DNA from: a bacterium
Lineage (GTDB): Bacteria; Bacillota; DTU030; DUMP01
Assembly (NCBI GenBank): GCA_050951365.1
Contig: JBMNIX010000011.1
Span: 8,845-72,844, forward strand
Direction: 5' to 3'
DNA: 64,000 nt
Shown: piece by piece, positions 425 to 22,335 of the stretch
Position numbering within the stretch: position 1 is the first letter of the stretch
Layout of the letters: each line of letters opens with the position of its first letter
Notes under the pieces: model-generated
Told to the model about the DNA's origin: nothing
What the model saw: only the letters and a program-made list of their open reading frames with translations
Databases searched by the model: none
Made by a program: the position numbers and the translations under genes

Positions 425-2278
425 ATGGGCAACGGGTACTGGGGCAAGGTCTTACGCGTAAACCTGACCGACCGCACCTTTCGGGAAGAACCAGTGGGTG
501 AGGACGTTTGGCGCAGGCTCCTGGGTGGGGCTGGCTACGGGGCCAAGGTGCTGCTCGAGGAGACACCGGCCAAGGTGGACCCGCTGGGACCGGAGAACAA
601 GATCATCTTCGGCATCGGCTGCCTGCAGAGCGTCCCGGCGCCGGGGAGCGCCAAGTGGAGCGTGGTCACCAAGTCACCCTTAACCCGCACGTACCTGGAT
701 TCCGCCGGGGCGGGCACCTAGGCGCCCATCTTCAAGCGCACCGGGTACGACTCGCTCGTCATCGAAGGCAAGGCCAGCGAACCGCTCTACCTCTACATTA
801 CCGACGGCAGGGTGGAGTTCCGCCCCGCCGGGCACCTCTGGGGCAAGACAACCGGCGAAACCACCGGCACCTTAAAGGATGAACTAGGCAAGAACGCCAG
901 TGTGCTCAGTATCGGTCCGGCCGGTGAGCGCCTGGTTCCCATCGCCTGCATCGCCTCCGACGGCATCAGCTTCGCCGGTCGCGGCGGTGCCGGCGCCGTA
1001 ATGGGCTCGAAGAACCTCAAGGCCATCGCCGCCTATGGGACCCAGGAGTGCCCCGTGGCCGACCGCGAAACGGCCTACCGGCTCAGCCGGGAAATGATGA
1101 GGGAACTGGCCGAGCGCGGCGCCGGCTTCAGCGAGAACGGTACACCCGCCGTTATCGTACCGTTTGAGGAGATGGGCGACACCCCCATCAAATACTGGAC
1201 GGGGGACGTGTGGCACGAGGGCGCGCGCCTGCTGGGGACGCCGCACTATAACGAGGTCCTAAACACGAAACCGCTGCACTGTCTGCACTGCCCGGTGGGC
1301 TGCCACCGCCGCGTGCGGGTGGACGGTCCGCCGGAGTTCGCCATGGAGGGTAACGGCCCGGAGTACGAGACCATCGCCATGTTAGGCTCCAACCTCCTCA
1401 TCGACGACTTGGCCCCCGTCACCAAGGCCAACGAGCTCTGCAACATGCTGGGGATCGACACCATCTCGGCCGGCGCCTGGATCGGTTTCCTGATGGAGTG
1501 CTACGAGAAGGGGCTCCTCACCGACGCCGAGCTGGGCGGCCCGGTGCGTTGGGGCGACGGCCACCGGATGGTGGAGCTCGTCGAGCAGATCGCCCGGGGT
1601 GAAGGCGTGAGCCGCTTCTTTAAGGAAGGCATTGTGGGCGCAGCGAAAATGGTCGGGAAAGGCGCCGAAGAGCTCATCGTCCACGTGAAGAACCTGGACT
1701 TCCCCGCCCACGACCCGCGCGCCGTTTTCGGCCTGGGCGTGAACTACGCCACCTGCCCCATCGGCGCCTCCCACGAGCGCGGCGACCCGCAGGCCACCGC
1801 CCTGGGCCTCTGCTACCCCGAGCTCGGCTGGGATGAACCGCCGGAGCGCTTCGACATCGACCGCGCCGCCGAGGTGGCTTACGTCATCACCAATGCCAGC
1901 CTGATGTACAACTCCCTGACGTTCTGTAAGTTCATCGTCAAAGGCGCCGGGATGACCCTTACCGAGCTCATCGACATCTTTAACGCCGTGACGGGCTGGA
2001 ACTGGACCCCGGCCGAGCTGGCCGACGTAGGTAAACGGGTCATTACGGTGCAGCGTCTCGTCAACGTGCGCGACGGCATCGGCCGCAAGGACGACGTGCT
2101 CCCGCCTAAGATGTACATCACGGCCAAGGAAGGCGGCCGCGTGGGCAAGACCCCGGCCACAGAGCACGAGCGCGTCCTCTCCGAGTACTACGCCCGGCGC
2201 GGCTGGGACGAAAACGGCGTGCCCACGCGCGAAACGGTGGAGAAACTGGCGTTGGGCGAGCTCCTTAAGTACGTGTAG
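425..2278 (+). pseudogene. aor: tungsten-type aldehyde:ferredoxin oxidoreductase (AOR family), reading frame interrupted by one in-frame TAG at 719-721
   Basis: ORF-track pieces 377..721 and 812..2278 are in the same frame. Read-through gives a continuous AOR N-domain (MGNGYWGKVLRVNLTDR...KSPLTRTYLDSAGAGT*APIFKRTGYDSLVIEGKASEPLYLYI...) followed by the catalytic domains. RBS GGAAGGAGG precedes ATG 425. Confidence 0.85.
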
Positions 2279-2674: not shown

Positions 2675-3631
2675 TCAAGCGAGGTCCCGCGCCGCCGGGA
2701 TGCCGGCCACGCCTTCGGCCGCCTGCACCGCCCGCAGGACGGCCTGGGCCGTCGCCTGCGCTGCGAGGGCGCCCACCTGATTGACATCGGCCTCCACCCG
2801 GCCGGTGGCCAAGCTGAAGATGGTGTCCCCGTCGAGCATGGTGTGCACCGGCCGGATGGCCCGGGCGTAACCGTCGTGGGCCATCTGGGCCACCTTGCCG
2901 GCCTGAGCCTTAGTGAGGCGCGCGTTGGTGGCCACGACGCCCAGGGTAGTATTACCCATGGCTCCAGTTGGGACGAAAGAAGTCTTGCGCAAGAACTCCT
3001 CGGCGTCTAGAAAGCCGCCTTTGTCTTCACTCAGGGTTCCGGCAACAATTCGTCCCGTGGCAGGATCTACCACATCACCCAGAGCGTTTACTGCCACCAA
3101 AGCACCCACCACCAGGTCTCCAACCTTCAGGCTGGCCGTACCGACGCCGCTTTTCATAGCCCGTTCGTGTCCCAGAAGCTTTCCTACCGTGGCACCACAA
3201 CCTGCCCCTACGTTCCCTTCTTCTACCGGCCCTGCCATCGCCTGCGCCGCAGCCTGGTAGCCCATGCTTCGATCGGGACGCACCCGGGGATCACCGATAC
3301 CCAGGTCAAACAGGCAAGCCGCAGCTACAATGGGCACGCGCGTAACACCCACATCAAAGCCATAGCCGTGTTCTTCCAGATAGGCCATTACCCCGCTTGC
3401 CGCGTCCAGGCCAAAGGCACTGCCCCCTGCCAGAACCACGGCGTGAGCCTTATCCACCAAGTTTGCAGGAGCCAAGGCATCCGTCTCTCTTGTGGCCGGG
3501 GCACTGCCCCGTACATCTACCCCGGCCACGGCACCCTCCGGGCACAGTATAGCAGTACACCCGGTGAGAGCTTCAGTGTTACTGACCTGGCCCACCCTAA
3601 TTCCGGGCACATCGGTAATGGCATCATACAT
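2675..3631 (-). CDS. P1/S58 (DmpA-like) aminopeptidase family protein
   Basis: The N-terminus MYDAITDVPGIRVGQVSNTEALTGCTAILCPEGAVAGVDVRGSAPATRETD... and the later GNTTLGVVATNA motif are characteristic of the DmpA/peptidase S58 family. Confidence 0.75.
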   Translation of the reverse strand: MYDAITDVPGIRVGQVSNTEALTGCTAILCPEGAVAGVDVRGSAPATRETDALAPANLVDKAHAVVLAGGSAFGLDAASGVMAYLEEHGYGFDVGVTRVPIVAAACLFDLGIGDPRVRPDRSMGYQAAAQAMAGPVEEGNVGAGCGATVGKLLGHERAMKSGVGTASLKVGDLVVGALVAVNALGDVVDPATGRIVAGTLSEDKGGFLDAEEFLRKTSFVPTGAMGNTTLGVVATNARLTKAQAGKVAQMAHDGYARAIRPVHTMLDGDTIFSLATGRVEADVNQVGALAAQATAQAVLRAVQAAEGVAGIPAARDLA

Positions 3632-3661: not shown

Positions 3662-5275
3662 TCACGCTCCGGTAAACACACGAGCGAGAGCAATGATAAC
3701 CCCTGTAACTCCCTCACCGCCTAAAAAGCCCGAGGAGACAAGCTGCCCCCGCTCACTTATCTGCGGCCAGTGCCTGTCCACCAGCCAGCGGCACAGTCCG
3801 CCTACGGCTGCAGCGGCAGAAATATACATGGGCAGATAAATCCCAATACCGATAGTCATGCCGGGGATGCCCAAGTAGTACAGCACAACACCCAGAGCAA
3901 AGCCTACCGCAAAAGCAGGAGCATGGGGTAAACCGCTCACCATAGTGGAGACGGCATATGCCTGGGGAGCAACCAGCTCGGTTCCAGGCCCCATAGCCCC
4001 AAAAGCACGGTGCATAACAAAGATCACAATCACAGAGACTGCTGCGCCTACAACACCACCAATCAGCTCGGCATAAACCTGGGCTCGCGGCATCGTGCCC
4101 AGCATGTAACCCGCCTTAAAATCCTGTAGATTATCCCCTGCTATTCCACAGGCCACCGCCACCACTGCCGCCACAAAGAAGGCGGCAGTGGTACCCGGCG
4201 TCACAACAAGCTTCACGGCTAGGAGCACCAAAATACCGAAAACCTCCATGGGGTCAATTCCTGTCTGGCCATCCAGAGTTGCGGCCATGGCAGTGGTTAT
4301 CCAAACACCCAGTATGGTAACAATGCTGGCCACGACTCCCATACCCGCAATGACAGTTAGACATACGGCTATTGCCGCCATAACGAACGGAGCCCAGCGC
4401 AGGTTTATATCACCGCGGCCGCCGAGCATAGGGCTAAAAACCTCGCGGGCTTTGGGCAAAACCCCCTTCAGAAGCACTCCCACCCCCGCCCCGACAATGA
4501 GGCCAATGCCAAAACTGTCTTTGATTGCTGTAGCTGTCTCCAGGCTGAGATAACCACCATTTACAGTCAAGGGAATGAATAGAAGATAACTGAGTACGGC
4601 ACCTAAGAACCAGGTTCCCATAAAAAGAGGGCCAATAAGGTACCCAATACCTGCCGCCATGGGTGACACCCAGACTCCGAACTGGATATTGCGCTGCCAG
4701 AGTGCTGCCGGCATCAAGGCGGCCGGAATCTTGCCCCATTGATCCCGCAGGGCAGTGATTACAGCGGCCACACCCAGGGAACCGAAGAGCCACTTGGCCT
4801 TTTGCCCGCCCTCATCACCAGCCAAGACGGTTTCCGCAGCCGCAATACCCATGGGAAAGGGAAGCTGCTCTACTTCAATGAAGTGGCGGCGCATGGCAGC
4901 CACAAAAATCACACCTAAGATGGTGCCACTCAGGGTCACAGCGAGCAAAGGCCAAAAACCTACCACCGCCTCAGGATCCAGCATCCAAATTCCTGGAACG
5001 GTGAAGGCAACACCGCCCGCCACCATGGCTCCAGCGGACATGGCTGTGTGGGCAACGTTTATCTCATTGAGATTCGTACGTCCACAAGCCTTAAGTACAG
5101 TAAGGGATAAGATAGCCACAAAGATCGTCGGCCAAGGCAGTGCCCCCATGCGCAAGGCCACATACATAGAACTGGTAGTTATGATTATCGATCCTATGAT
5201 ACCAAGTACGATCGCCCGGAGGGTAAATTGCTCCTCAAAGGACGAAGCATACCCCACTCGGTTCTGTTCCTCCAT
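3662..5275 (-). CDS. OPT-family oligopeptide transporter
   Basis: 537-aa polytopic membrane protein. The N-terminus ...EEQFTLRAIVLGIIGSIIITTSSMYVALRMGALPWPTIF... resembles bacterial OPT transporters. It lies 30 nt upstream of the DmpA-like peptidase gene on the same strand. Confidence 0.7.
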   Translation of the reverse strand: MEEQNRVGYASSFEEQFTLRAIVLGIIGSIIITTSSMYVALRMGALPWPTIFVAILSLTVLKACGRTNLNEINVAHTAMSAGAMVAGGVAFTVPGIWMLDPEAVVGFWPLLAVTLSGTILGVIFVAAMRRHFIEVEQLPFPMGIAAAETVLAGDEGGQKAKWLFGSLGVAAVITALRDQWGKIPAALMPAALWQRNIQFGVWVSPMAAGIGYLIGPLFMGTWFLGAVLSYLLFIPLTVNGGYLSLETATAIKDSFGIGLIVGAGVGVLLKGVLPKAREVFSPMLGGRGDINLRWAPFVMAAIAVCLTVIAGMGVVASIVTILGVWITTAMAATLDGQTGIDPMEVFGILVLLAVKLVVTPGTTAAFFVAAVVAVACGIAGDNLQDFKAGYMLGTMPRAQVYAELIGGVVGAAVSVIVIFVMHRAFGAMGPGTELVAPQAYAVSTMVSGLPHAPAFAVGFALGVVLYYLGIPGMTIGIGIYLPMYISAAAAVGGLCRWLVDRHWPQISERGQLVSSGFLGGEGVTGVIIALARVFTGA

Positions 5276-5347: not shown

Positions 5348-6757
5348 TTAGAAACTCTGCGTTATAATAAAGTCTATCAGTTTTTCAGTTTCCCGCCAGG
5401 TAAAACCTGGAATACTTGGCGATAATCCGGACTGCCGCGCAGCAGCAACGTCACCAAATACAGCCACGAGCCTTCCCGTCATACGGGTAATAGGTTCGGA
5501 AACGCCACGACGAAAAACGGCAATCTTGGGAAAGGGACCGCTCTTCAGTCCCTCCAGCAAGACAATATCTAGCGGACCGAACCAGTCTCGTAGCCGCTCG
5601 ACTGCAGCTTCCGCCCCAAGCTCATAAAACAAGGTGGCCCGCTTGGGCGTGAGCAGAGCTGCCGCTTCGGCCCCCGCCTGAGCAAAGCGCCAGGTGTCTT
5701 TGCCAGCAGTATCCGTCTCAACATCTTCGTGAGTGTGTTTCACAGCAGCTACCTTCACCCCGCGGCGAACTAGCCCTTGAATTAGCTCCATAAGGAGGGT
5801 GGTTTTCCCACTACCCGAGGTACCTACAAAGCTGATAACGGTCGGGGAGGGCCGCTGCGCCGCCGCCCCGTCATTAGCTGTCTTACCTGTCTGGCCTAGC
5901 GGCAGGGAATGCATCTGGCCACTGGCAGAGTCTATATAGAAAAGGCGGCACCGTAAGGGTTCTCCCACCCCAGTCAAGATCTTGATCACCTCCTGTACCT
6001 CTAAGGAGGCAACTAAGGCGGCAGTAGCAGCCAGGTTGCCTGTTTCCACCTCAATGCCACGCTCGCGGCCGGTGACGGAACCATAAATCTCTGCCAGCCC
6101 TGGATCACCAGGAAAAATGGTTAGTACTTGACCTAGGAAACCAGCAATTGCACCATGTACAAGGGGAATGTTTGATGCCCGTGCTGCTGCTTCTAAAGCA
6201 AAACGGGCGGGCAGGTTATCTAAGGCATCTACCACAAGGTCTGCACCCTGCAGCAAGGCTCTGGCGTTCTCAGGAGTCAACCGTTCCTGGAAGTAGGTCA
6301 CCTCTGTGGCCGGATTAATGGCCCAGACCCGTTCTCGTGCTACCTCTACCTTAGGCCGGCCCAGGTCCGCCTCCCGGGCAAGTATCTGCCGGTTAAGATT
6401 ATTGTCGCTGAAAACGTCGTTATCTATCAGGATGAGTCTCCCCACTCCCATGCGAGCCAGAAGCTCCACCACAAGCCCACCCAACCCACCGCAGCCTACC
6501 ACCGCCACCGTTGCACGAACCAGACACAGCTGCCCCTCTTTGCCAATAGTACCGATATTCCTCAGGTAGCGGCCAGGTACTATGCCCCCTTCTAAGGCAA
6601 TAAGTTCTACCTCCCTCCGAGATACGTCACAAGTACGCGCAATCTCGCCACAGGCTGTGAGCGAGAGAACCCGCTCTGTCTTCTTGCCCACCTGCGCCGG
6701 TTCCGCCGCCTCCTGAACCATATTCTTGATGGCTTGAGCCTTGGCCGCCGCATCCAT
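5348..6757 (-). CDS. ThiF/MoeB-type E1-like adenylyltransferase fused to a C-terminal MobB-like P-loop domain
   Basis: The Rossmann motif VAVVGCGGLGGLVVELLARMGVGRLILIDND and NLNRQ are ThiF/MoeB hallmarks. The C-terminal VISFVGTSGSGKTTLLMELIQGLVRRGVKVAAVKHTHED matches the MobB Walker A region. ATG 6757 has RBS AAGGAAGGTGA; the TTG at 6790 is a less likely start. Confidence 0.75.
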   Translation of the reverse strand: MDAAAKAQAIKNMVQEAAEPAQVGKKTERVLSLTACGEIARTCDVSRREVELIALEGGIVPGRYLRNIGTIGKEGQLCLVRATVAVVGCGGLGGLVVELLARMGVGRLILIDNDVFSDNNLNRQILAREADLGRPKVEVARERVWAINPATEVTYFQERLTPENARALLQGADLVVDALDNLPARFALEAAARASNIPLVHGAIAGFLGQVLTIFPGDPGLAEIYGSVTGRERGIEVETGNLAATAALVASLEVQEVIKILTGVGEPLRCRLFYIDSASGQMHSLPLGQTGKTANDGAAAQRPSPTVISFVGTSGSGKTTLLMELIQGLVRRGVKVAAVKHTHEDVETDTAGKDTWRFAQAGAEAAALLTPKRATLFYELGAEAAVERLRDWFGPLDIVLLEGLKSGPFPKIAVFRRGVSEPITRMTGRLVAVFGDVAAARQSGLSPSIPGFTWRETEKLIDFIITQSF

Positions 6758-6998
6758 TTTATTCACCTTCCTTGCTTCGTTTTTCGCCAACTACCCAGGT
6801 AAACCCTGCTAACCAAGAACACACTTTACTAGAACTTTTGTTCCCTTTATGAACTTTATGTACTTAATGCCCCAGCTGCCTGATAGGGCAGGTATTTCTC
6901 ACCTGAATGTAGAACTTAATATATATTATGGTCACACAATTCACTCTTATAGTACAAGGGGCCCTTTAGTTAATTTCTAGACGGGGAGGACGAGGTAT

Positions 6999-7721
6999 AT
7001 GCAAGTCAAGGAGGAACTCTGTGTCGGTTGCGGCCGCTGTGTGCTCTACTGTCCGGTTCAGGCTATCAGTCTCAGCGCAGACAGGAAACTGGCCGTTATT
7101 GACCAGGATGAGTGTGTCGAGTGCGGCGCCTGCCTCAGGAGTCCTGCATGCAAGACTGGTGCCCTTTATCAGCCAGAGCTAACCTGGCCCCGTGCTGTCC
7201 GCAGTCTTTTGAGCGATCCCCTTACTATCGCTCCTGAAAGCGGCATTAGCGGTCGCGGTACGGAAGAAATGAAGACCAACGATGTTACTGCGCGCTTCAA
7301 GCGCGGCTATGCTGGAGTAGCCGTGGAGGTGGGTCGGCCCCTCCTGGGCGCGCGCCTTAGGGATGTAGAAAAAGTGGCACAAGCCATCGCACGTTTTGGT
7401 GTTGAATTTGAAAAGATTAACCCCACCACCAGCCTTATGGCAGATCCCAAGACAGGCAAGTTCAAGGACGATCTCCTAGACGAAAAGGTGCTCTCGGCCA
7501 TTATTGAGTTTGCAGTGCCTATCGAGAAGCTACCTGACGTTCTTTACACTCTGGAACGAGTCTCCCACGAGATAGACACCATCTTTACTGTGGATGTATG
7601 CTCGCGCTGCAATCCAGACGGCTCCATTCCCCATGAGGAACTCCTGGCCCGCGGTAACTGGTGGTATTCCATTAACGTCAAGACCAACGTGGGCTTGGGC
7701 CGACCCCTAGCAGCAGAGTAG
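6999..7721 (+). CDS. 2x[4Fe-4S] ferredoxin domain fused to an uncharacterised ~170-aa domain (module copy 1, subunit A)
   Basis: Cys motifs CVGCGRCVLYCP and CVECGACLRSPAC, followed by a conserved domain (GRGTEEMKTNDVT, FGVEFE, KVLSAIIEF, KTNVGLGRP). A paralog lies at 24717..25427. RBS GGGGAGGACGAGG precedes the ATG. Confidence 0.8.
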   Translation: MQVKEELCVGCGRCVLYCPVQAISLSADRKLAVIDQDECVECGACLRSPACKTGALYQPELTWPRAVRSLLSDPLTIAPESGISGRGTEEMKTNDVTARFKRGYAGVAVEVGRPLLGARLRDVEKVAQAIARFGVEFEKINPTTSLMADPKTGKFKDDLLDEKVLSAIIEFAVPIEKLPDVLYTLERVSHEIDTIFTVDVCSRCNPDGSIPHEELLARGNWWYSINVKTNVGLGRPLAAE

Positions 7722-7754
7722 CAGGGAAATAAGCTAGGCTGAGGAGGTAACGAA

Positions 7755-8384
7755 ATGACACATACGCTGCACCGCATCGGCAGCTATAACGACTTGACCG
7801 AGGATTACGTGTTTCTCATGATGCCGTCCAAAGGGATCAACGTAGAAGGATCCGGTGAAAAACTGCGCACCTTTTTGGAAATGGCCTTGAGGCATAATCC
7901 GGTCATTATCGGTGACGCCCGCAAAGGCAACGCCTACCACCAGGGTGGCATTGACAACCTGCTGGCCAATATTGAAGATCAAGCAGTAGTGCAAGCGGTG
8001 TTTGACAATAAGGAAACGGTTGTTACCCTACTTAAAGAACTGAAAGAAGCTGACCTGGGCATGTCAGTGGTGGTTTCTGGCATCGCCACTGAGGTGCACG
8101 AGGCATGTAGGCAGGCGGGATTGGAGCGCCACACCGTAGAACACTCCCTGGGCCGCTGGGGCCGCACCGACAAACTACCGCCGCGGCAAATTCTGGAAAT
8201 AACCAACATGTGTGGACACTCCATGGTCCCGGCCCAACTGGTCTACAACATGCTGGCTGACATAAGAACAGGGCGCAGAACAGCCGAAAATGCGGCAGGA
8301 GAGCTGGCTAAGCCCTGTATGTGCGGTATCTTTAATACAAAACGGGCAGCCCGGCTCTTGGCTGCACTGGCAGAAGCTTTCTAG
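7755..8384 (+). CDS. uncharacterised Cys-containing protein, N-terminus MTHTLHR (module copy 1, subunit B)
   Basis: 209 aa, 33 nt after subunit A, with RBS GAGGAGG. Blocks shared with paralog 25440..26063: MTHTLHR, GSGEKL, HNPV.IGD, VVSG, EIT.MCGH, GRRTAE.A..ELA..C.CGIFN.KRA. I recognise no characterised family. Confidence 0.8.
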   Translation: MTHTLHRIGSYNDLTEDYVFLMMPSKGINVEGSGEKLRTFLEMALRHNPVIIGDARKGNAYHQGGIDNLLANIEDQAVVQAVFDNKETVVTLLKELKEADLGMSVVVSGIATEVHEACRQAGLERHTVEHSLGRWGRTDKLPPRQILEITNMCGHSMVPAQLVYNMLADIRTGRRTAENAAGELAKPCMCGIFNTKRAARLLAALAEAF

Positions 8385-8471
8385 AATAGGAACCTAACCA
8401 GAAAGAAGGTGGGAGTAACTAAGAAATCATTTTGCACCAGAAAAAGAAAGATAGATAGGAGGGGCATTCAC

Positions 8472-9464
8472 ATGCGGAAACGCACACTGGTATTAGTAGC
8501 CAGCCTCCTGGCACTAACACTTCTCGCCGGGTGTTCAGGGGGCCAACAACAGACCTCGCCTGGCGCTAATTATCCGGAAAAACCCATTAACTACGTGATC
8601 CCTTGGAGTCCAGGCGGTGGCAGCGACGTCATGGGGCGCATGGTGGCGGATATCATACAACAGAATAAGTTCCTGCCCCAACCCCTGGTAGTTGTAAACA
8701 AGCCAGGCGGTAGCGGCGCCGTGGGTATGAACGAAGTGGCACAGAAAAAGGGTGATCCCTACACCATTATCGGCGTAGTGTCAGGACAAATCAGTACACC
8801 CATCACCACTGGCGCTGAGGTCAAGGCCTCCACCTTTAAACCCATTGCAGCTTTAGCCCTGGATGAATTCTTTCTCTTGGTAAAACCCGAATCCGAGTTC
8901 CAAACGCTGCAGGACGTCATCGACTATGCCAAGGCCAACCCTGGTAAACTCACCATGGGCGGCACCGGTACCGGCTCTGAAGACCACATGTGCGCCGGCC
9001 TGTTGATGGACGCCGCCGGTATTCAAGTAGAGTATATCCCCTTTGATGGCGGCGGTGAGGTCATGAGCGCCCTCCTAGGCGGGCACGTACAGGTGGCCTG
9101 GGCCAATCCTTCAGAGTGTGCCTCTCAGCTAAAGGGAGGGCTGGTCAGGGTTCTGGGCGTCATGGCACCGGAGCGGACAAAAACCTATCCCGACATCCCA
9201 ACCTTTAAGGAACAGGGTGTAGATGCTGTCTTCCAGCAGATCCGCGCCATCTCTGGTTCGCCTGACATGCCCGACTACGCGGTAGAAGTAATAGGCGAAG
9301 CCCTTAAGAAGGTAAGTGAATCCGAACGCTGGCAGAAAGAATACATTGAGAAGAACGCCCTCACCTCCCGTTACCTTGGCCCGGAGGAGTACGGTCAGGC
9401 TATCGCAGAGGCTGAGAAACAGTACACTGAGATTCTCACTAACCTTGGTTTGGTCAAGAAGTAG
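8472..9464 (+). CDS. tctC: tripartite tricarboxylate transporter (TTT) substrate-binding protein, lipoprotein
   Basis: The signal peptide with lipobox LLAGCSG follows ATG 8472 (RBS GGAGGGG). The motif YPEKPINYVIPWSPGGGSDV is typical of the TctC/Bug family. Confidence 0.8.
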   Translation: MRKRTLVLVASLLALTLLAGCSGGQQQTSPGANYPEKPINYVIPWSPGGGSDVMGRMVADIIQQNKFLPQPLVVVNKPGGSGAVGMNEVAQKKGDPYTIIGVVSGQISTPITTGAEVKASTFKPIAALALDEFFLLVKPESEFQTLQDVIDYAKANPGKLTMGGTGTGSEDHMCAGLLMDAAGIQVEYIPFDGGGEVMSALLGGHVQVAWANPSECASQLKGGLVRVLGVMAPERTKTYPDIPTFKEQGVDAVFQQIRAISGSPDMPDYAVEVIGEALKKVSESERWQKEYIEKNALTSRYLGPEEYGQAIAEAEKQYTEILTNLGLVKK

Positions 9465-9566: not shown

Positions 9567-10004
9567 ATGTCAGGCGACCGTATAGCGGGTTTATTAGGAA
9601 TGATCTGTGGACTATATTGGGGTGTGATGGGCTACAACTACGGCATCTGGGGCCAAACCGGACCAGCCAGCGGCTTCATTCCGGTGATCTTTGGTTCGCT
9701 TACTTTTGTTCTCAGTACTATACTCATCGGGCAAACATTTACGCGGGGCGGAATTAAGCTTAGCATCGGAGAGATACGAACTGTAGTCCTTATCTCTGTT
9801 TTTACGGGTACAGCCATCTTTCTCCTGAATAAACTGGGCACTATGCCTACTCTGGGGCTACTCATTCTTCTCTGGTTGCGCTTCCTCGAGCGTTATCCCT
9901 GGGCCGCAGTCATTAAAATCAGTGTGGGCACCATCGCAGTTGCCTATTTCGTGTTCGTGGTTTGGCTGCAAGTACCATTTCCTACAGGCTGGCTGGGCTT
10001 CTAA
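9567..10004 (+). CDS. tctB: TTT small membrane subunit
   Basis: 145-aa protein with 4 predicted TM segments, lying between the tctC-like and tctA-like genes. Confidence 0.6.
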   Translation: MSGDRIAGLLGMICGLYWGVMGYNYGIWGQTGPASGFIPVIFGSLTFVLSTILIGQTFTRGGIKLSIGEIRTVVLISVFTGTAIFLLNKLGTMPTLGLLILLWLRFLERYPWAAVIKISVGTIAVAYFVFVVWLQVPFPTGWLGF

Positions 10005-10022: not shown

Positions 10023-11546
10023 ATGGATATTCTCTCTAACCTAGTTACAGGTTTTGGCCAAGCACTGCTTCCTGTGAATATCTTCTTCGCCCTGGCAGGA
10101 GGAGTCATGGGGGTCATTGTCGGGGCTTTGCCCGGCCTTGGTTCCATTGCCGGTGTGGCACTCTTGCTCCCGCTCACCTTCAAACTCAATCCTACCTCAG
10201 CCATTATTATGCTGGCAGGCATCTACTATGGCAACATGTTTGGCGGCTCCATCAGTGCCATCCTCATTAATATCCCTGGGGATTCCCCGGCTGTCATGAC
10301 TGCCCTGGATGGTAACCAACTGGCTAAGCAGGGCCGCGCCGGGCAAGCCCTTTTTATGGCCTTTTCCGCCTCTTTCTTCGGTGGCCTCATCGGTATCATT
10401 ATTCTCACTGTTCTCGGTCCATTCTTGGCCTTTGTCGGCCTAAAGTTTGGCCCCCCTGAATTTGCTGCCCTTATCGTCCTGGCTTTAACCAGTATCGGTT
10501 GGCTCCTGGGGGACAACCCTATCAAAGGGGTCTTGGCCGGAGCAGTCGGACTTCTTATTGCCACCATCGGCGTCGATATGATCGAAGGTTTACCCCGCTT
10601 CACCTTTGGGTTAGTAGGCCTCTCATCCGGGGTACCCTTTATTCCCTTTGTCATTGGTCTCTTTGGGCTGGCACAGGTAGTACTCATGTTGGCCCATCCG
10701 GAAGAATTCAGGGCCGACGAAACGCAACCTTCTACCAGACTCTCCCTACGGAGCAGCCTGCCCAGTGTTAAAGATTGGGCCGCCAGTGCCTGGACCATCC
10801 TCAGAAGCGCTGTGTTAGGCTTTTACATCGGTCTACTACCAGGCTCTGGTGCTACCACCGCCGCCTTTTTATCTTATGTGGCCGAAAAGCGCTTAAGCAA
10901 GCACCCGGAACGCCTGGGCCAAGGTGCCATCGAGGGTGTAGCTGCTTCAGAGGCTGCTAATAATGCCGCTAGCATGGGTGCCTTCGCACCGCTCTTGTCT
11001 CTAGGCATTCCTGGTTCTGGGACCACCGCTATCCTTCTCGGTGGCCTCATGATGTGGGGCCTTACCCCTGGCCCGCTGCTCTTTAGAGAAGCGCCGGAGT
11101 TTGTCTGGGGTCTCATCGCCAGTATGTACGTGGGCAATCTCCTCGTGGCCATCACCTGTATTGTAGCTATTCCTGTCTTGGTTTATGTCCTGCGCGTTCC
11201 CCGCGCCGTGATGGCCCCGGTCATTGTTGTAATCTGTATCCTCGGTGCCTACAGTGTGAATAACAGCATCTTTGATCTTTGGGTGATGCTCTTCTCAGGT
11301 GTCCTCGGTTACTTCCTCAACCGGCTAAAATTTCCCATCCCAGCTATGGTGCTGTCCGTTGTCCTCGGGCCACGGCTCATGACTTCTATCCGACAGTCCT
11401 TTATGATGTCCCACGGTGCAGCCAGTATCTTCATCACACGCCCCATTTCCCTCACCCTGCTCCTACTGGCTGTCCTGCTTACCGCTGGCCCCGCTATTGC
11501 TGGCGTAATCAGGAAGCGTCGGGCCGCTTCGGCAACCGCAGAATAG
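10023..11546 (+). CDS. tctA: TTT large permease subunit
   Basis: 507-aa polytopic protein. The motifs GALPGLG, GGSISAILINIPG and LPGSGATTAAFLSY are typical of TctA. Confidence 0.8.
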   Translation: MDILSNLVTGFGQALLPVNIFFALAGGVMGVIVGALPGLGSIAGVALLLPLTFKLNPTSAIIMLAGIYYGNMFGGSISAILINIPGDSPAVMTALDGNQLAKQGRAGQALFMAFSASFFGGLIGIIILTVLGPFLAFVGLKFGPPEFAALIVLALTSIGWLLGDNPIKGVLAGAVGLLIATIGVDMIEGLPRFTFGLVGLSSGVPFIPFVIGLFGLAQVVLMLAHPEEFRADETQPSTRLSLRSSLPSVKDWAASAWTILRSAVLGFYIGLLPGSGATTAAFLSYVAEKRLSKHPERLGQGAIEGVAASEAANNAASMGAFAPLLSLGIPGSGTTAILLGGLMMWGLTPGPLLFREAPEFVWGLIASMYVGNLLVAITCIVAIPVLVYVLRVPRAVMAPVIVVICILGAYSVNNSIFDLWVMLFSGVLGYFLNRLKFPIPAMVLSVVLGPRLMTSIRQSFMMSHGAASIFITRPISLTLLLLAVLLTAGPAIAGVIRKRRAASATAE

Positions 11547-11567: not shown

Positions 11568-12446
11568 GTGCGCCTGGTACAATTCTTTCTAGACACCAAT
11601 GCCCTTAGGGTGGGACTGTGGCAGGAGGACGGCATACGCGACATAACGCTGCCTGATCAGGGACTTACCAACACCAACGCTTATCTCGGGAGAGCAGTGG
11701 ATCAGAAAAAGAGCCTGGCTCACGTCGTGGCCGAGGCTTGCCAGGGCGAAAACCTGCCGCTACTGGCCCGGGAGTCTGTACGGCTAACACTCCCCTTTTT
11801 CCCGGACGAGGTGTGGGGCTGCGGAGTCACCTATAAGAAAAGCATGGAGTTTAGGGCTGAGGAGCTCAGCGAACCAGAGAACATCTATGAACGTGTCTAC
11901 AAAGCGGAGCGACCTGAGACTTTTTTTAAGGCCACGACTGCGCGCTGCGTTGGGCCAGGCGAAGCCATTGGCAAACGGGCCGATTCCATCTTCACTGCGC
12001 CGGAGCCAGAGCTGGCCGCGGTAGTGGGACCAACAGGTGAGGTTTTGGGCTACACCCTGGCCAACGACGTTTCCGCCTGGGATATAGAGCGCGCTAATGC
12101 CCTCTACCTGCCCCAGAGCAAGATCTACGCCAAGTGCTGTGCCTTAGGGCCATTTCTTGTAAGTGCTGATGCAGTCCGGGATCCTTACACCATCACCATG
12201 TCCTGCCGCATCATAAGGCAGGGAAAGGTCCTCTTTACAGGCGAAGCCACCACCGCTAACCTCAAGCGCACTATACCAGAACTTATCGCTGCTGTGCAGC
12301 GCTCTAATGTGCTGCCTACCGTCACAGTTATCCTCACCGGCACAGGTATCATTGTCCCAGAGGATGCAGCCCTGGCAGTGGGAGACGTGGTGGAGATCAC
12401 GGCTAATGGTTTGGGTACTTTGATCAATACGGTGGAAGAAGTCTAG
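11568..12446 (+). CDS. fumarylacetoacetate hydrolase (FAH) family protein
   Basis: 292 aa. The C-terminal catalytic region (...GCGVTYKKS..., ...ELAAVVGPTGE..., LTGTGIIVP) resembles FAH/2-keto-4-pentenoate hydratase-type folds. GTG start with RBS GGGAGGAGGGG. Confidence 0.65.
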   Translation: MRLVQFFLDTNALRVGLWQEDGIRDITLPDQGLTNTNAYLGRAVDQKKSLAHVVAEACQGENLPLLARESVRLTLPFFPDEVWGCGVTYKKSMEFRAEELSEPENIYERVYKAERPETFFKATTARCVGPGEAIGKRADSIFTAPEPELAAVVGPTGEVLGYTLANDVSAWDIERANALYLPQSKIYAKCCALGPFLVSADAVRDPYTITMSCRIIRQGKVLFTGEATTANLKRTIPELIAAVQRSNVLPTVTVILTGTGIIVPEDAALAVGDVVEITANGLGTLINTVEEV

Positions 12447-12588
12447 CAGGGGGCGGGTCCATGGCCCGCCCCCTAGGGCGTTTTAGCTGCCCGTATTGGC
12501 TATTCAACTGGTAGGGCATAGACCTTATACATGTCCCAGCTTCAGATTCAGACCATCACAAGGCTTACCTCCACACTAACTGGCCTCG

Positions 12589-13563
12589 CTAGTATTGGTT
12601 GAACAACTCGGTCATCTCCTCATGATCTAGCCCTGCCCCGAGGCCAATCATCAAGAGCAGGCGAGCCTGGGGTCCAGAGAGGGCCCCACCGAAGATGACC
12701 CCTTCGCGAACCAAGGATGCTCCACCGCCAAGATAGCCATAGCGCGGGGCAACCCGCCCGTCCGGACTGCGAGAAACCATAACCACTACCAGGCCAGCGT
12801 CCCGGGCCTTTTTTATTCCCCAGTAAAACTCCTCGTTCACATTGCCCATCCCCACGCCAGAGACTACTATTCCCGCGGCACCAGTGGCTATAGAGGCCTC
12901 GATGTGGCGGGCATCCATGCCGGCGGTAAATACCACCAGATCTACCGGTTCTGTGATCCGGCTGACGGGGAGCCTTCTCAGGGGCGGCAGGTCACGCCAA
13001 TAGTGCACCCCGCTGCTGTCCACGGTACCCAAGAGCCCAGCCTCGCCCGAGGCAAAGGCCCGTAGGCTTGTAGTGTGTACCTTGCGCACACTGCGTGCAG
13101 GGTGGACCTCACCTGCAAAAGTTACCAGCGTTCCCCGCTCCCGGCTCTCCGGTGCTGCTGCTACTTGAAGGGCCGCTGCCAAGTTGGCCGGGCCATCCGG
13201 CCAGGGCTCTGACGCTGCCCGCTGGGCACCAGTTAAGACTACAGGCTTAGCTCCAGGCACTGTGACATCGAGAAAGAAGGCTGTCTCCTCCAGGGTTGAG
13301 GTACCATGGGTGACCACAACACCGTCCACCTTTTCTTCCGCCAGGATTTGGCGGAGGGAAAGTGATAGCGCCAGCATGTCTTGGGGCCGAAGGTAGGTAC
13401 TGTTGATCCGGGCAAAGTCCTCCACCTCAACCTCTACTCCAGGCGGAGGTTCCACCAGCACGTCCTCACCGCTCAAACCCGCGGCTAAACCGCCTAATTC
13501 TGGTTTGTACACCGTGGCAATGGTACCCCCGGTGGCTATGAGTTTGATCCTACGTCTTGTCAT
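12589..13563 (-). CDS. L-asparaginase (type I/II family)
   Basis: IKLIATGGTIATV (active-site Thr motif) and VVTHGTSTLEETAFFL are asparaginase signatures. ATG 13563 has RBS AAGGAGGG; the longer ORF-track N-terminus is unlikely to be real. Confidence 0.8.
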   Translation of the reverse strand: MTRRRIKLIATGGTIATVYKPELGGLAAGLSGEDVLVEPPPGVEVEVEDFARINSTYLRPQDMLALSLSLRQILAEEKVDGVVVTHGTSTLEETAFFLDVTVPGAKPVVLTGAQRAASEPWPDGPANLAAALQVAAAPESRERGTLVTFAGEVHPARSVRKVHTTSLRAFASGEAGLLGTVDSSGVHYWRDLPPLRRLPVSRITEPVDLVVFTAGMDARHIEASIATGAAGIVVSGVGMGNVNEEFYWGIKKARDAGLVVVMVSRSPDGRVAPRYGYLGGGASLVREGVIFGGALSGPQARLLLMIGLGAGLDHEEMTELFNQY

Positions 13564-13786
13564 GCTTGCGAACCCTCCTTGTGCCCTTCTGACAAATAAG
13601 AACGTTGAGTCCTTTTTCTTGATAAGAAGCCAACTTCCTGCTACCCTGTGTTGCACGTGGCAAGTCTTTTTCAAGTTGCTTCTTAGTCTCAGTAGCAAGA
13701 AGGAGTTCATTTCCGCTAAGTCAAATAAGGCTAGAGACATGATGGTTATTTCGACCAGAGGTTAGAACTAGAAAGGAGGATCCTAA

Positions 13787-15166
13787 GTGGCAGATCTAGC
13801 TGTAAGAAATGCTCGGGTTGTTACAGAGGAGGGGGTTTTTCTCGGGGGTATCGCCGTTCAAGAAGGTATGATTGTGGCTCTGGGGACAAATGAGAGCTTA
13901 CCTAGCGCAGAGACAGTTGTAGACGCAGAGAGGAACTATCTCCTCCCTGGTGGCGTGGATCCGCACGTTCATATCCGCTACCCCGGCGGGCCCCATCGGG
14001 AGACCTTTAGCACCGGAACAGCGGCCGCAGCCGCCGGTGGCATCACCACCATCATCGAGCATCCCATCTCCGCACCGCCTCCGTTCTCCAAAGAGATTCT
14101 CCTGAACAGAGTAGCCGCAGTCACAGAGCAGGCACTGGTAGACGTGGCCTTCTTCGGGGCGGCAGGCTATGACAAAGCAGCCTCTATCGGCGAACTGGCC
14201 TCGGCGGGTATTGTGGCTTACAAGACTTTCCTCCAGGCCGCACCAGAAGGACGGGAAAATGAATTCATTGGGCTCACCATGAAGGATAGTCACGAGCTCT
14301 ACGCAGGCCTCCGAGCAGTGGCTCCCACCGGACTCCCTCTGGCCGCCCACGCGGAAGACAACGACCTGGTTTCTGGCCTGGTGCAAGAATTTCGTGCCGC
14401 CGGTAAGGTCTCTCCACTGGACCATGCCCGTACGCGCCCGCCTGTCGCCGAGGTGCTATCGGTTGAGAGACTCATTCGCCTCGCCCGGGAGACAGGAGCT
14501 ACCTTATACCTGGTCCACATCTCCACCCCTGAGGCCGTAATGCTGGCCGACCAAGCCCGCAAGGCCGGACAACGCATCTTTATCGAGACCTGCCCCCAGT
14601 ACCTCTATCTCAGCGAGGAGGCTTTAATCCAACACGGTCCCTACGCCAAGTGTAACCCGCCACTTAGGACCAGGGCCGAAGTTGACGCCATGTGGCGCTT
14701 TGTCCAGGATGGCACCGTGGACACCATTGGCAGCGATCACAGCCCCTTTACCGCAGAGGAGAAGGAGAAGGGGCTAGAGAACATCTTTAACGCCCCCTCA
14801 GGCTTCCCCGGCCTTGAAACACGCCTTCCCCTTATGTTGACAGCCATAAAGGAAGGACGTATCTCCCTAGCACAGGCGGTGAATCTTCTTAGCACCAACC
14901 CCAGCCGCATCTTTGGCCTTTACCCGAGAAAAGGCACCATCAAAATTGGTGCCGATGCCGATCTCGCACTAGTCAACCTGGACGAACCCTTCACCCTTCA
15001 CCACAGTAATATGCTCACCAAGTCCCGTGACGCCAGCCGCGTGTACGATGGTTGGAAACTGTATGGCCGGGTTCTCAAGACCTTTGTACGTGGAAAACTC
15101 GTCTTCGACGAAGGCCGGATAGTCGCTGAGCCTGGCTGGGGCCAGTGGGTCACACCTGGCGAGTAA
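13787..15166 (+). CDS. cyclic amidohydrolase (allantoinase/hydantoinase/dihydroorotase superfamily)
   Basis: The metal motif GGVDPHVHIRYPG, then GTAAAAAGGITTIIEHP and a late GSDHSPF. Its 459-aa size is typical of allantoinase or dihydropyrimidinase. GTG start with RBS AAAGGAGGA. Confidence 0.75.
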   Translation: MADLAVRNARVVTEEGVFLGGIAVQEGMIVALGTNESLPSAETVVDAERNYLLPGGVDPHVHIRYPGGPHRETFSTGTAAAAAGGITTIIEHPISAPPPFSKEILLNRVAAVTEQALVDVAFFGAAGYDKAASIGELASAGIVAYKTFLQAAPEGRENEFIGLTMKDSHELYAGLRAVAPTGLPLAAHAEDNDLVSGLVQEFRAAGKVSPLDHARTRPPVAEVLSVERLIRLARETGATLYLVHISTPEAVMLADQARKAGQRIFIETCPQYLYLSEEALIQHGPYAKCNPPLRTRAEVDAMWRFVQDGTVDTIGSDHSPFTAEEKEKGLENIFNAPSGFPGLETRLPLMLTAIKEGRISLAQAVNLLSTNPSRIFGLYPRKGTIKIGADADLALVNLDEPFTLHHSNMLTKSRDASRVYDGWKLYGRVLKTFVRGKLVFDEGRIVAEPGWGQWVTPGE

Positions 15167-15217: not shown

Positions 15218-15991
15218 CTAGCCTTTAATAAAATCCTCTATGAACTCAACAATGCGTTCTAGTGCAGTATCGTTTATCTTCTTACCTTTCTCAGGACTGG
15301 CTGCACGGGCATCACCCATAGCCCCGTTGTTGGTAAGGTCTTTCCAGCGGTAAGGGTAACCCACACGGAATTGTCCGTACAGATCTGTATACTTGAAGGG
15401 ATAGGCACCCTCTCCACCCTTACTTAAAGCATCCGGCCGCACCAATTCGGGTGCCAAGAACCAAGCGTCCGAAACCTCCCATTCGCCTGAGTGTTCGATT
15501 CTGCCTGAGGTAACAACCTCCTTGGTCACATCAGCGGTCATTACCTTGTAATTAACATAGGGCACCCTCAAGCCAAACTGGGCTCGGATAGCCTCGACAG
15601 CCACTGCCAAAGTACCCTCGTTACCACCATGGGCGTTGATAATAAGGAAACGCTGGAACCCATGCTGCCGCAAACTGGCCACATAATCAACAATGGTGTC
15701 CACCAAGGTTTGCGGCCTCAAGGTGATAGTGCCGGGGAAATCAAGATGGTGCGGGGAAATCCCCACCGGAATACCCGGTGCAACAAGCACACGGGGATAA
15801 AGGGCGCGAGCTACGCGCAGGGAGAACTTGTAAGCACGCGTAGCATCAGTCGCCAGGCAAAGATGTGGCCCGTGTTGCTCAGTTGATCCCACCGGGATTA
15901 TCACCAGCTGTACCTTGTCTTTGCGCTCCTCGATTTCCATCCAGGTAAGATCGCCAATGGCGACGCGCTTTTCCGTCTCGGCCTCTGGCAT
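15218..15991 (-). CDS. creatininase (creatinine amidohydrolase) family protein
   Basis: VIIPVGSTEQHGPHL and FLIINAHGGN motifs; 257 aa. Confidence 0.8.
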   Translation of the reverse strand: MPEAETEKRVAIGDLTWMEIEERKDKVQLVIIPVGSTEQHGPHLCLATDATRAYKFSLRVARALYPRVLVAPGIPVGISPHHLDFPGTITLRPQTLVDTIVDYVASLRQHGFQRFLIINAHGGNEGTLAVAVEAIRAQFGLRVPYVNYKVMTADVTKEVVTSGRIEHSGEWEVSDAWFLAPELVRPDALSKGGEGAYPFKYTDLYGQFRVGYPYRWKDLTNNGAMGDARAASPEKGKKINDTALERIVEFIEDFIKG

Positions 15992-16831: not shown

Positions 16832-17779
16832 CTACAACAGGTGACAAGCCACACGGTGGCCGGGAGCTACTTCTCTCAAGACCGGCTCTTCTTTGCTGCA
16901 CCGCTCCTCTGCGCGCCAGCAGCGCTTAGCAAAACGGCAGCCTGGCGCTGGATTGATGGGGCTGGGAACATCACCTTTTAAGATAATCCGCTCGCGCTGC
17001 TTCCCAATCTTGGGCACAGGTATCGCCGAAAGCAACGCCTGCGAATAAGGATGCAACGGTTGTTGGAACAATTCTTCCGAGGTTGCCTCTTCCACAATCC
17101 GCCCCAGGTACATCACCATAATGCGCTGGGAGATATGCTTTACTACGCTGAGGTCATGAGAGATAAACAGGTAGGTGAGACCCATCTTCTCTTGCAGATC
17201 CTGGAGCAAATTCAAGATCTGGGCTTGAATGGAAACATCCAAGGCAGAGACAGGCTCATCGCAAACAATAAACTCAGGGTTAAGGGCTAGGGCCCGGGTA
17301 ATGCCAACCCGCTGGCGGCGACCTCCGTCTAGCTCGTGAGGGAACTTATCCGCCATCTCGGCAGTAACACCAGTGGCCGCCATCAGCTCTTCCACTTTTT
17401 GCCACAGTGCCCTGCCTTTGTACAGCTTTTGTACAAGCAACGGTTCGGCGATGATTTGGCGTACGGTCTTTCTTGGATCTAGGCAGGAGTAAGGGTCCTG
17501 AAAGATCATTTGCATTTTCCGCCTGAGCACCTTCAGCTGTGCCGGTTTAGCAGCGAGGACATCCTCCCCTCTGTATATCACCTGCCCACCCGTTGCCGGG
17601 ATAAGCCTCAATAGGACCCGACCGGTGGTAGACTTACCACAGCCGCTTTCGCCCACCAGTCCTAAAGTCTCACCCTCTTTGATATCAAAACTAAGATCAT
17701 CCACCGCATGAAGCTTACCGCGGTCCTTTACATCAAAGTATTTCTTGAGGTTCTTAACGCTGATAATTGTCTCGCTCAC
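16832..17779 (-). CDS. oligopeptide/dipeptide ABC transporter ATP-binding protein (DppF/OppF-like)
   Basis: Walker A GESGCGKST, signature LDGGRRQRV, and the C-terminal oligopeptide-type extension. GTG 17779 overlaps the upstream stop (GTGA) and follows RBS GGGGAGGTG. Confidence 0.85.
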   Translation of the reverse strand: MSETIISVKNLKKYFDVKDRGKLHAVDDLSFDIKEGETLGLVGESGCGKSTTGRVLLRLIPATGGQVIYRGEDVLAAKPAQLKVLRRKMQMIFQDPYSCLDPRKTVRQIIAEPLLVQKLYKGRALWQKVEELMAATGVTAEMADKFPHELDGGRRQRVGITRALALNPEFIVCDEPVSALDVSIQAQILNLLQDLQEKMGLTYLFISHDLSVVKHISQRIMVMYLGRIVEEATSEELFQQPLHPYSQALLSAIPVPKIGKQRERIILKGDVPSPINPAPGCRFAKRCWRAEERCSKEEPVLREVAPGHRVACHLL

Positions 17780-18753: not shown

Positions 18754-18779
18754 CTCATCACCTCCCTGTGCTACGAGAT

Positions 18780-19682: not shown

Positions 19683-19703
19683 CAGAGTCTCCCCCTTTAT
19701 CCT

Positions 19704-22292: not shown

Positions 22293-22335
22293 TTTGGCTG
22301 TTACCCTCCTCGAAAATGTTACTTGTGTATCGCGG

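Follow-up and report, generated by a model that had tools for sequence, protein, structure and literature searches.

In a 64-kb stretch of bacterial DNA from the Bacillota (contig JBMNIX010000011.1 of assembly GCA_050951365.1; hereafter the window, with positions counted from its first letter), two tightly linked genes of the forward strand encode the proteins that we call A1 (subunit A, 240 aa, 6999..7721) and B1 (subunit B, 209 aa, 7755..8384). The two genes, taken from the list of open reading frames (ORFs), are 33 nt apart, and GGAGG-type ribosome-binding sites precede both, as the original prediction, an earlier reading made from the letters alone, had described. The same list holds a second, collinear pair on the same strand, A2 (236 aa, 24717..25427) and B2 (207 aa, 25440..26063), with a gap of 12 nt. 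Pairwise alignment gives 54% identity for A1 and A2 (E = 4e-90) and 50% for B1 and B2 (E = 5e-75), a likeness far beyond chance, by which the two pairs are true paralogs. A2 retains all eight ferredoxin cysteines discussed below together with every family motif, and B2 retains MTHTLHR, CC, MCGH and CxCGIFN; no third A-B copy is present within the 64-kb window. The four ORFs and the paralogous pair at 24717-26063 thus lie exactly where they had been placed, and the motifs quoted at the time (CVGCGRCVLYCP, CVECGACLRSPAC, GRGTEEMKTN[DE]VT, KTNVGLG[RK]P, MTHTLHR, MCGH and CxCGIFN) are all found in the translations.

The first copy leads an operon that continues on the forward strand with the genes of a tripartite tricarboxylate transporter (TTT), encoding the TctC-type periplasmic solute-binding protein (8472..9464; PF03401), the small membrane subunit TctB (9567..10004; PF07331) and the large membrane subunit TctA (10023..11546; PF01970). 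Its last gene encodes an enzyme of the fumarylacetoacetate hydrolase (FAH) fold family (11568..12446; PF01557, 85 bits), beyond which a terminator-like hairpin followed by a T-run lies at 12467..12480 (+), as found by consensus scan only. The domain matches and the hairpin after the FAH gene agree with the proposed A1-B1-TctCBA-FAH operon. The listed ORF of TctC begins at 8409 and the called gene covers about 8472..9464 (330 aa); its best PDB relatives are the TTT binding proteins 25hk and 4x9t (reference releases throughout were Pfam 2025, NCBIfam 2026 and PDB 2026). TctA is 56% identical to a TctA cluster found beside A-B in other genomes. The NCBIfam matches of the FAH enzyme are weak and all below cut-off (AraD1/GguC, HpaG and 2,4-didehydro-3-deoxy-L-rhamnonate hydrolase). 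An orthologue occupies the same position in two of the homologous loci (numbered here with the letter L), L001 (68% identity) and L061, and this partner is limited to close relatives of copy 1, namely the window, L001, L061 and also L027.

The operon of the second copy has the order M20 hydrolase-A2-B2-Zn-dependent dehydrogenase. Its first gene encodes an M20-family dipeptidase/deacylase (23332..24699, +; NCBIfam PRK06446 and PRK08201) that scores 411 bits against PRK06446, above the cut-off of 369, and ends with a stop codon 17 nt ahead of A2; in the Acetomicrobium locus L003 a 65%-identical M20 gene lies two genes upstream of A'B', the pair there that most resembles A2/B2. The gene 3' of B2 encodes a Zn-dependent medium-chain alcohol dehydrogenase (Zn-ADH; Tdh-like; 26110..27105, +), whose NCBIfam matches are all below cut-off; relatives with 50-52% identity occur in A-B loci of the Desulfobacterales (L034, L038 and L045), and L060 also carries a Zn-ADH (Pfam ADH_N/ADH_zinc_N domains). 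Divergent from this operon is the gene of a GntR/FCD-type regulator (22336..23106, -; identified from the ORF list and by 33% identity to a GntR-FCD cluster present in 19 A-B loci), which heads the operon of a Dpp-type ABC transporter (16832..22358, -; SBP_bac_5 and ABC ATPase domains, the SBP_bac_5 protein being encoded at 20721..22358).

Residues 2-57 of A1 contain eight cysteines (8, 11, 14, 18, 39, 42, 45 and 51) arranged as C8-x2-C11-x2-C14-x3-C18-P and C39-x2-C42-x2-C45-x5-C51, so that the last spacer of the second motif is x5, whereas it is x3 in the canonical CxxCxxCxxxCP. Subunit A scores 40.3 bits against Fer4 (cut-off 21.1) and 36.6 against Fer4_7 (cut-off 27), and the eight cysteines show no exception across 50 homologues, 47 paired sequences and a lineage of B-A fusion proteins. 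Judged by these scores and cysteines, the ferredoxin head that had been noticed at the N-terminus is a genuine domain of the 2x[4Fe-4S] bacterial ferredoxin class (Fer4 clan). Matches of A in NCBIfam and among PDB sequences (the best being HgcB, FdxA, RnfB, FwdF and MvhB) span residues 2-60 only and are far below the family cut-offs. The first 57 residues belong to the same domain class as the PorD/KorD delta subunits, HgcB, the RnfB C-terminus and FwdF/MvhB, yet these proteins have no counterpart for the remaining 180 residues of A or for B.

This remainder of A1 (residues about 58-240, ~180 aa) has no described family in Pfam, NCBIfam or among PDB sequences. It contains the invariant loops GRGTEEMKTNxVT (85-97), GRP (112-114) and N-x-K-T-N-x-G-L-G-x-P (226-236), and the invariant polar residues beyond the cluster ligands are E89, E90, K92, T93, N94, K228 and N230. 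Database labels of A and B homologues are mostly 'hypothetical protein' or '4Fe-4S binding protein'. Two more specific labels were tried and rejected. Homologues of A are called 'dihydropyrimidine dehydrogenase PreA subunit' in JGI, a label for which the ferredoxin head is the sole basis: no DHO_dh-type domain was found in A1, A2 or the 50 homologues, which match only Fer4-type models, and the ferredoxin domain is N-terminal in A, whereas it is C-terminal in PreA/PydA. Homologue P0123 is labelled DUF362 at NCBI; that profile (PF04015) is absent from the 50 members of A at E ≤ 0.1 and from A1 and A2 at E ≤ 1.

Subunit B begins with the tail M-T-H-T-L-H-R, invariant in the form x-[TS]-H-x-x-H-R-x-G, followed by an N-terminal alpha/beta sandwich (residues about 10-110 of B1) and a C-terminal helical domain that bears C153-G-H155 and C188-x-C190 throughout the family. 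Conservation was measured over 131 diverse representatives of 50%-identity clusters, which are 32-57% identical to B1. In this sample C153, H155, C188 and C190 are 98-99% conserved; the positions conserved at 95% or above are R7, D17, G102, G133, G136, C153, G154, H155, C188, C190 and N194, and those at 85-95% are M1, T2, H3, H6, G9, H126, S131 and R197. The four invariant cysteines claimed originally hold among 48 close relatives but not family-wide, as the vicinal CC at 117-118 is variable (C117 34%, C118 60% of the representatives) and C118 is a feature of the B1 subfamily only. The family-wide set of putative ligands is accordingly Cys3+His and not Cys4. In the AlphaFold2 model each of these four residues sits at a predicted helix end, and they are retained in the fusion lineage of the Chloroflexota too. 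From the electron-transfer partners of B we infer that the site holds a redox-active Fe-S cluster. A BFD-like [2Fe-2S] domain (PF04324) was also considered for residues about 150-195, where the C-x-[C/H]-x32-C-x-C spacing alone is similar, and was rejected: Fer2_BFD gave no match at E ≤ 10 to 50 isolated C-terminal domains of B, the profile of this domain gave no match in the PDB, and its hhalign probability against two Bfd sequences that were entered by hand was 0.2%.

The searches placed neither B nor the non-ferredoxin part of A in a described family, which agrees with the earlier remark that a domain of ~170 aa in A could not be assigned. B1 and B2 gave no match in Pfam or NCBIfam; scanned singly against Pfam, 48 homologues of B matched no family and 50 homologues of A matched nothing besides Fer4-type models; and phmmer and family profiles found no match for B or the non-ferredoxin part of A among PDB sequences. 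AlphaFold2, run on family alignments, gave confident models (pLDDT 88.2 and pTM 0.87 for A, 90.8 and 0.87 for B), and in Foldseek neither model has a PDB match at E ≤ 1e-3. A beta-alpha-beta-beta-alpha-beta sandwich is predicted both for the core of A (about 100-205) and for the N-terminal half of B, and the nearest folds in Foldseek are those of aspartokinase ACT domains, PII-like proteins, MJ1052 and TM0486. These ACT/PII/MTH1187-YkoF-type matches are weak (E ≥ 6e-3, query TM 0.2-0.3) and reflect a generic fold, with no sequence relation; the only other similarity that Foldseek returned is to the ferredoxin head of A. Homology between the A core and the B sandwich is not detectable (hhalign probability < 1%). 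The least ordered parts of the models are invariant segments, namely the low-confidence loops 80-100 and 225-240 of A (the latter with NGKTNVGLGRP) and residues 1-10 of B, as would be expected of segments that fold only within a complex.

No characterized member of A or B was found in Pfam, NCBIfam, the PDB or the searchable literature, in which no paper contains the string MTHTLHR; nothing on the A-B pair was found there under 6-hydroxynicotinate reductase, pantoate catabolism, TTT systems with 4Fe-4S clusters and threonate or erythronate. The name 6-hydroxynicotinate reductase (Hnr, EC 1.3.7.1) is carried by no match in the homologue lists of A or B. As far as profiles and predicted folds can tell, the A-B pair, the ferredoxin head aside, belongs to no known family. 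It is probably new as a protein family and as an enzyme type, and its reaction could be of a familiar class.

The co-occurrence of A and B outside this genome was assessed in two samples, one of 47 GTDB loci (one genome per species; 45 with a full B gene) and one of 80 metagenome loci out of at least 549 found, with 82 copies of B, six of them without a testable upstream region. A lies upstream of B on the same strand in all 45 GTDB loci, immediately in 44 and 1.6 kb away in one. Most stop and start codons are -4 to +20 nt apart, and in twelve cases the two genes overlap as ATGA; the pairwise-identity matrices of the two proteins correlate with r = 0.91. In the metagenomes, 74 of the 76 testable copies of B are preceded by A (70 by a full A and 4 by an A fragment at a contig end), the exceptions being L135 and L131. 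In L135 a 181-aa protein of the FMN_red/flavodoxin fold (7412..7957) replaces A, 43 nt upstream of a canonical B (8001..8615); this is the sole clear case of B without a preceding A. In L131 a 77-aa ferredoxin remnant precedes B; it looks like a degraded or mis-assembled A and was not used as evidence. Thus A and B co-occur essentially always, across several phyla.

In the Chloroflexota the two are fused in the order B-A, in 22 full-length clusters (463-493 aa) besides the query and one partial match of 310 aa. The fusions keep the ferredoxin cysteines, W-P-R, G-R-P and K-T-N-x-G-L of A as well as H3, R7, G9, M-C-G-H and C-x-C of B. In two further proteins, P0249 and P0259, a DmsB-type ferredoxin with four clusters (Fer4_11) follows B at the C-terminus; in L055 (200..2172) an A gene lies ahead of that for P0249, and the two reading frames share 4 nt at the stop codon of A. 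The A and B genes behave as one unit in inheritance and translation, and sometimes by fusion. The fusions and the replacement of A show that A and B work together and point to B as the module that receives or donates electrons.

Three contexts of the B-A fusions (proteins P0382 and P0391-P0412) were examined, L056, L057 and L058. They lack a carboxylate transporter operon, an MFS gene adjoins the fusion in L057, and genes of the HGD-D type (2-hydroxyacyl-CoA dehydratase-like) lie near the fusion in two of the three, in one case with a BcrAD/BadFG activator. Several metagenome-assembled genomes have two or more separate A-B loci (for example L007/L008, L015/L031, L022/L027 and L023/L029).

The family can be delimited by an A gene directly upstream of B or a B-A fusion; by the eight ferredoxin cysteines, W-P-R, G-R-P and C-terminal K-T-N-x-G-L of A; and by x-[TS]-H-x-x-[HY]-R-x-G and C-G-H, followed about 32 residues on by C-x-C-G-x-F-N, of B. 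These features are present in both window copies, the 45 GTDB loci, the 74 metagenome copies and the Chloroflexota fusions. The B family comprises at least 1249 clusters at 90% identity (E ≤ 1e-3), and its profile finds at least 856 representatives at 50% identity, of which 243 fall below 1e-30. The carriers are anaerobes. Among the Bacillota they are Clostridia, Negativicutes (with Sporomusa termitida), Desulfoscipio, Desulfotruncus, Blautia hominis, Oscillibacter and Pseudoflavonifractor; cultured carriers are Sporomusa termitida (CP036259, region 119.9-140.5 kb), Desulfoscipio sp. XC116 (CP156660), Blautia hominis KB1 and Desulfotruncus arcticus. Those among the Desulfobacterota are Syntrophobacter, Desulfobacterales and Dethiosulfatarculus, and further carriers belong to the Synergistota, the Chloroflexota and candidate phyla. 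Sulfate reducers, syntrophs, acetogens and human-gut Oscillospiraceae and Blautia are among them.

The gene context was surveyed in 88 loci, the 45 of GTDB together with 43 metagenome loci that span 6 kb or more. Most contain uptake genes, either TTT (TctCBA), TRAP (DctPQM), MFS or ABC systems, and the regulators are of the GntR-FCD, IclR and sigma-54 types. We tentatively propose, as a possibility that we hold at somewhat less than an even chance, that A and B form a heteromeric Fe-S oxidoreductase of strict anaerobes acting on imported hydroxy- or oxo-carboxylates. Electrons would pass through the two clusters of A between ferredoxin, as the soluble carrier, and the metal or Fe-S site of B (Cys3-His), while the loops GRGTEEMKTNxVT and NGKTNVGLGRP of A and the N-terminal tail of B may close over this site and form the active centre at the A/B interface. 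The substrate could be a small imported hydroxy- or oxo-carboxylate, or an acid that a neighbouring hydrolase frees from an imported amide, and the most likely reaction would interconvert an alpha-hydroxy acid and the corresponding 2-oxo acid with neither flavin nor NAD. The product would feed adjacent enzymes of 2-oxo acids, such as PanB in a retro-aldol reaction to methylene-tetrahydrofolate (methylene-THF), the FAH-type hydrolase/decarboxylase or a DHDPS-type aldolase. In the window, copy 1 may act on the acid imported by TctCBA ahead of the FAH enzyme, and copy 2 on a compound released by the M20 hydrolase, alongside the Zn-dependent dehydrogenase. We favour alpha-hydroxy/alpha-oxo chemistry because it is the only reading that would explain the adjacent PanB, FAH, aldolase and IlvD product. 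The redox step on an imported organic acid that had originally been suggested fits the nearly universal linkage to uptake genes, the DmsB-type fusions and the FMN-protein swap of L135.

Several observations weigh against this proposal. Direction, reaction and substrate are all read from neighbouring genes alone. NAD(P)-dependent dehydrogenases of the HIBADH, PdxA and Zn-ADH types often share the operon, which would make A/B partly redundant, and a low-potential ferredoxin head with two clusters is unexpected for the oxidation of a 2-hydroxy acid, a couple near -190 mV. The Cys3-His set could hold a structural zinc and not an Fe-S cluster. Moreover, the conservation of A and B is unusually high, at about 55-60% identity between phyla and 50% between the paralogs; it would fit one common substrate or a generic role better than a multitude of substrate-specific enzymes, yet the neighbouring enzymes differ widely.

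The last point, a sequence very conserved across phyla beside strongly varying enzymes, also speaks for a generic accessory, such as an electron carrier or adaptor (for example for aldehyde:ferredoxin oxidoreductase, AOR), a redox sensor, or a 2-hydroxy-acid racemase or epimerase whose own clusters take up the electrons for a short time. It would agree with such a role that AOR is adjacent in several loci (directly upstream of A-B in L114 and L128, and present also in L131 and in the window) and that tandem duplications A-B-A'-B' within one operon occur in L003 (5911..8618), L060 (8275..11147) and L130. We nevertheless regard a generic accessory as very unlikely, since the invariant polar residues that are not ligands (R7, D17, N194 and H126 of B and the E89-N230 set of A) exceed the needs of a carrier, A and B have no DNA-binding or signalling domain, and most loci are without AOR or another obvious ferredoxin-dependent partner.

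The Fe-S oxidoreductase that we favour may also be given a more specific and more doubtful form, in which B would carry a new catalytic metallocentre made of the Cys3-His Fe-S cluster, the N-terminal Thr/His/Arg tail and the loops of A. This centre would do its redox work on small hydroxy acids with no flavin, NAD or pterin, and in one subfamily it would serve a PanB-linked route for pantoate or tetronates. PanB, which scores 312 bits against its NCBIfam equivalog model (cut-off 207.6), occurs in 21 of the 88 loci, and the subfamily linked to it would combine a TRAP or TTT transporter, A-B and PanB with amidohydrolase and HIBADH enzymes. The amidohydrolase would turn pantothenate or another N-acyl compound into pantoate or a 2,4-dihydroxy acid; A/B would oxidize pantoate, C4 tetronates or a like 2,4-dihydroxy acid to a 4-hydroxy-2-oxo acid; and PanB working in reverse would split the latter into a 2-oxo acid and methylene-THF. 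In L025 the gene of a TRAP binding protein lies upstream of A-B in the same operon, and its closest PDB entries are 4p47, 4pdd, 4nq8 and 4p9k/4pak; the ligand-bound structures among the surveyed PDB homologues around 4p47 contain pantoate or erythronate (PMC11668362). The gene and protein of pantothenase are still unidentified (PMC10393543).

The main rival of the proposed hydroxy acid oxidoreductase draws on another recurrent group of neighbours. COG1228-type amidohydrolases are found in 29 of the 88 loci and HIBADH-type dehydrogenases in 28, and the core A-B-HIBADH-amidohydrolase recurs in L012, L063, L064, L072, L073, L078 and L126. Such a core would suit a low-potential reductase, in which reduced ferredoxin reduces a C=C bond or the heteroaromatic ring of an imported carboxylate (of pyridone, pyrimidine or hydantoin type), the amidohydrolase opens the ring and the HIBADH-type enzyme takes the resulting semialdehyde. 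The HIBADH neighbour, closest in NCBIfam to L-threonate dehydrogenase and tartronate-semialdehyde reductase though below either cut-off, has a single strong PDB match, 3cky, the 2-(hydroxymethyl)glutarate dehydrogenase Hgd of Eubacterium barkeri, and the combination of a ferredoxin-linked Fe-S reductase, an amidohydrolase and a HIBADH-family dehydrogenase resembles the nicotinate fermentation module of that organism (6-hydroxynicotinate reductase Hnr, enamidase Ena and Hgd) and the reductive pyrimidine route PydA-PydB (dihydropyrimidine dehydrogenase and dihydropyrimidinase). Hydrolases of the cyclase (PF04199), creatininase and M20 families are frequent neighbours, and PF04199 includes kynurenine formamidase and isatin hydrolase, which act on amides or lactams. 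The window itself contains genes for an S58 (DmpA-like) peptidase (2675..3631, -), an asparaginase-like protein (12589..13740, -), an allantoinase/hydantoinase-like protein (13787..15166, +; TIGR03178, 371 bits with a cut-off of 358) and a creatininase-family protein (15218..15991, -) besides the M20 enzyme, and looks like an amide-hydrolase island for the catabolism of nitrogen-rich compounds around the A-B modules. Low-potential chemistry would, in addition, suit the ferredoxin head.

However, known enzymes of the Hnr/Ena/Hgd or PydA/PydB logic use flavin, and no flavin- or nucleotide-binding domain is detectable in A or B by Pfam. Nor is the amidohydrolase neighbour an enamidase, an identity that we considered and rejected, or a dihydropyrimidinase: its PDB relatives (Arg carboxypeptidase Cc2672, Xaa-Pro dipeptidase and ochratoxinase) place it in the carboxypeptidase/N-acyl-amino-acid group, unlike the amidohydrolase of the nicotinate module. 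As PanB, IlvD/Edd, KARI, the glycerate kinases and the DHDPS-like aldolase would also be left unexplained, we consider the reductase unlikely.

Other neighbours are typical of acid-sugar routes. PdxA-like enzymes recur in the loci, as do the cyclase-family enzymes and Zn-dependent dehydrogenases, and found occasionally are IlvD/Edd, KARI, glycerate kinases of two kinds, a DHDPS-like aldolase, a xylose-isomerase-like TIM barrel together with an FGGY kinase, and a family-III CoA-transferase together with an Oxc/HACL-like enzyme dependent on thiamine diphosphate (TPP). With the FAH enzyme (XylX/AraD1-like by a weak match) and the HIBADH enzyme resembling L-threonate dehydrogenase, many of these would be in keeping with a non-redox Fe-S hydro-lyase. 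With the cluster of B as the Lewis acid, such an enzyme would remove water from a di- or polyhydroxy acid resembling tartrate, glycerate or tetronate, and FAH, PanB or the aldolase would use the resulting 2-oxo acid; the head of A would merely keep the cluster reduced or repaired. The lone classical sugar-acid dehydratase among the annotated neighbour clusters and representatives is the IlvD/Edd of L053. The four-cluster DmsB-type fusion and the flavoprotein that replaces A, however, argue for a sustained flow of electrons. Membership of the described hydro-lyases with Fe-S clusters (aconitase, class I fumarase/tartrate dehydratase including fumarase A, L-serine dehydratase and IlvD/Edd) was rejected, as A and B match none of them in Pfam, in NCBIfam or, by Foldseek, in the PDB; these enzymes hold their cluster by three cysteines and have a free iron site, whereas B conserves four potential protein ligands and thus no obviously free iron. 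A hydro-lyase appears quite improbable.

The closest analogy, and a functional precedent, for the mode of action proposed here, an Fe-S oxidoreductase of 2-hydroxy acids, is LutABC/YkgEFG, a multi-subunit and apparently flavin-free Fe-S system that is encoded in catabolic operons and is thought to oxidize a 2-hydroxy acid. LutB consists of a 2x[4Fe-4S] ferredoxin-like domain and a LUD/DUF162 domain, and LutA of CCG Cys-rich domains, so that in both systems a two-cluster ferredoxin-type domain would be paired with Cys-rich partners. The likeness is one of analogy, as A and B have no relation to LutABC in sequence or fold. Membership in LUD_dom (PF02589) or CCG (PF02754) was rejected for want of any Pfam match among members of A or B, and Foldseek found no such structure; moreover, A/B has two subunits and a Cys3-His motif, whereas LutABC has three subunits and CCG motifs.

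Solving the reaction of A/B would add a new type of Fe-S enzyme and would annotate thousands of operons that serve the catabolism of small organic acids and amides in the gut, in digesters and in anoxic sediments. Orphan steps may come to light, for instance in the anaerobic breakdown of pantoate/pantothenate or tetronates, and the link of such pathways to the ferredoxin pool would be explained. If the PanB-linked route were true, an orphan anaerobic catabolism of pantothenate/pantoate or acid sugars would supply C1 units to folate. Even with conventional chemistry A/B makes a clean target, consisting of two small soluble proteins with natural fusions and with cognate binding proteins for ligand screens.

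Several other genes of the window deserve mention. AOR is encoded at 812..2278 (+; AFOR_N and AFOR_C in Pfam); the ORF begins inside AFOR_N (profile positions 125-199), and its true start is probably further upstream. In L128 (3645..11448) the order is AOR, the Oxc/HACL-like TPP enzyme, A, B and two family-III CoA-transferases, as if A-B had been combined with a module for CoA-dependent alpha-oxidation or of the oxalyl-CoA type. Divergent from A1 is a gene for a 480-aa fusion of a MoeB/ThiF-type adenylyltransferase with MobB (5348..6790, -), found at the same place in L001, L002 and L061 at about 62% identity. The idea that A/B is a molybdopterin enzyme was rejected, since this fusion occurs only in the closest relatives and the tungsten enzyme AOR explains the gene better; the fusion is probably linked to the supply of tungsten or molybdenum cofactor for AOR and not to A/B. 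An OPT transporter is encoded at 3662..5275 and, like the Dpp-type ABC system, lies beside the amide hydrolases. Rfam detected no riboswitch or leader RNA in the 64-kb window, only three tRNA genes (45461..45533, 60592..60664 and 62828..62898, the last on the - strand). Convergent with the operon of copy 2 is a gene for a putative redox-active protein of the C_GCAxxG_C_C family (115 aa, 27164..27511, -), and a SipL/LysM sporulation protein encoded at 32431..34050 (-) points to a spore-forming host of the Bacillota.

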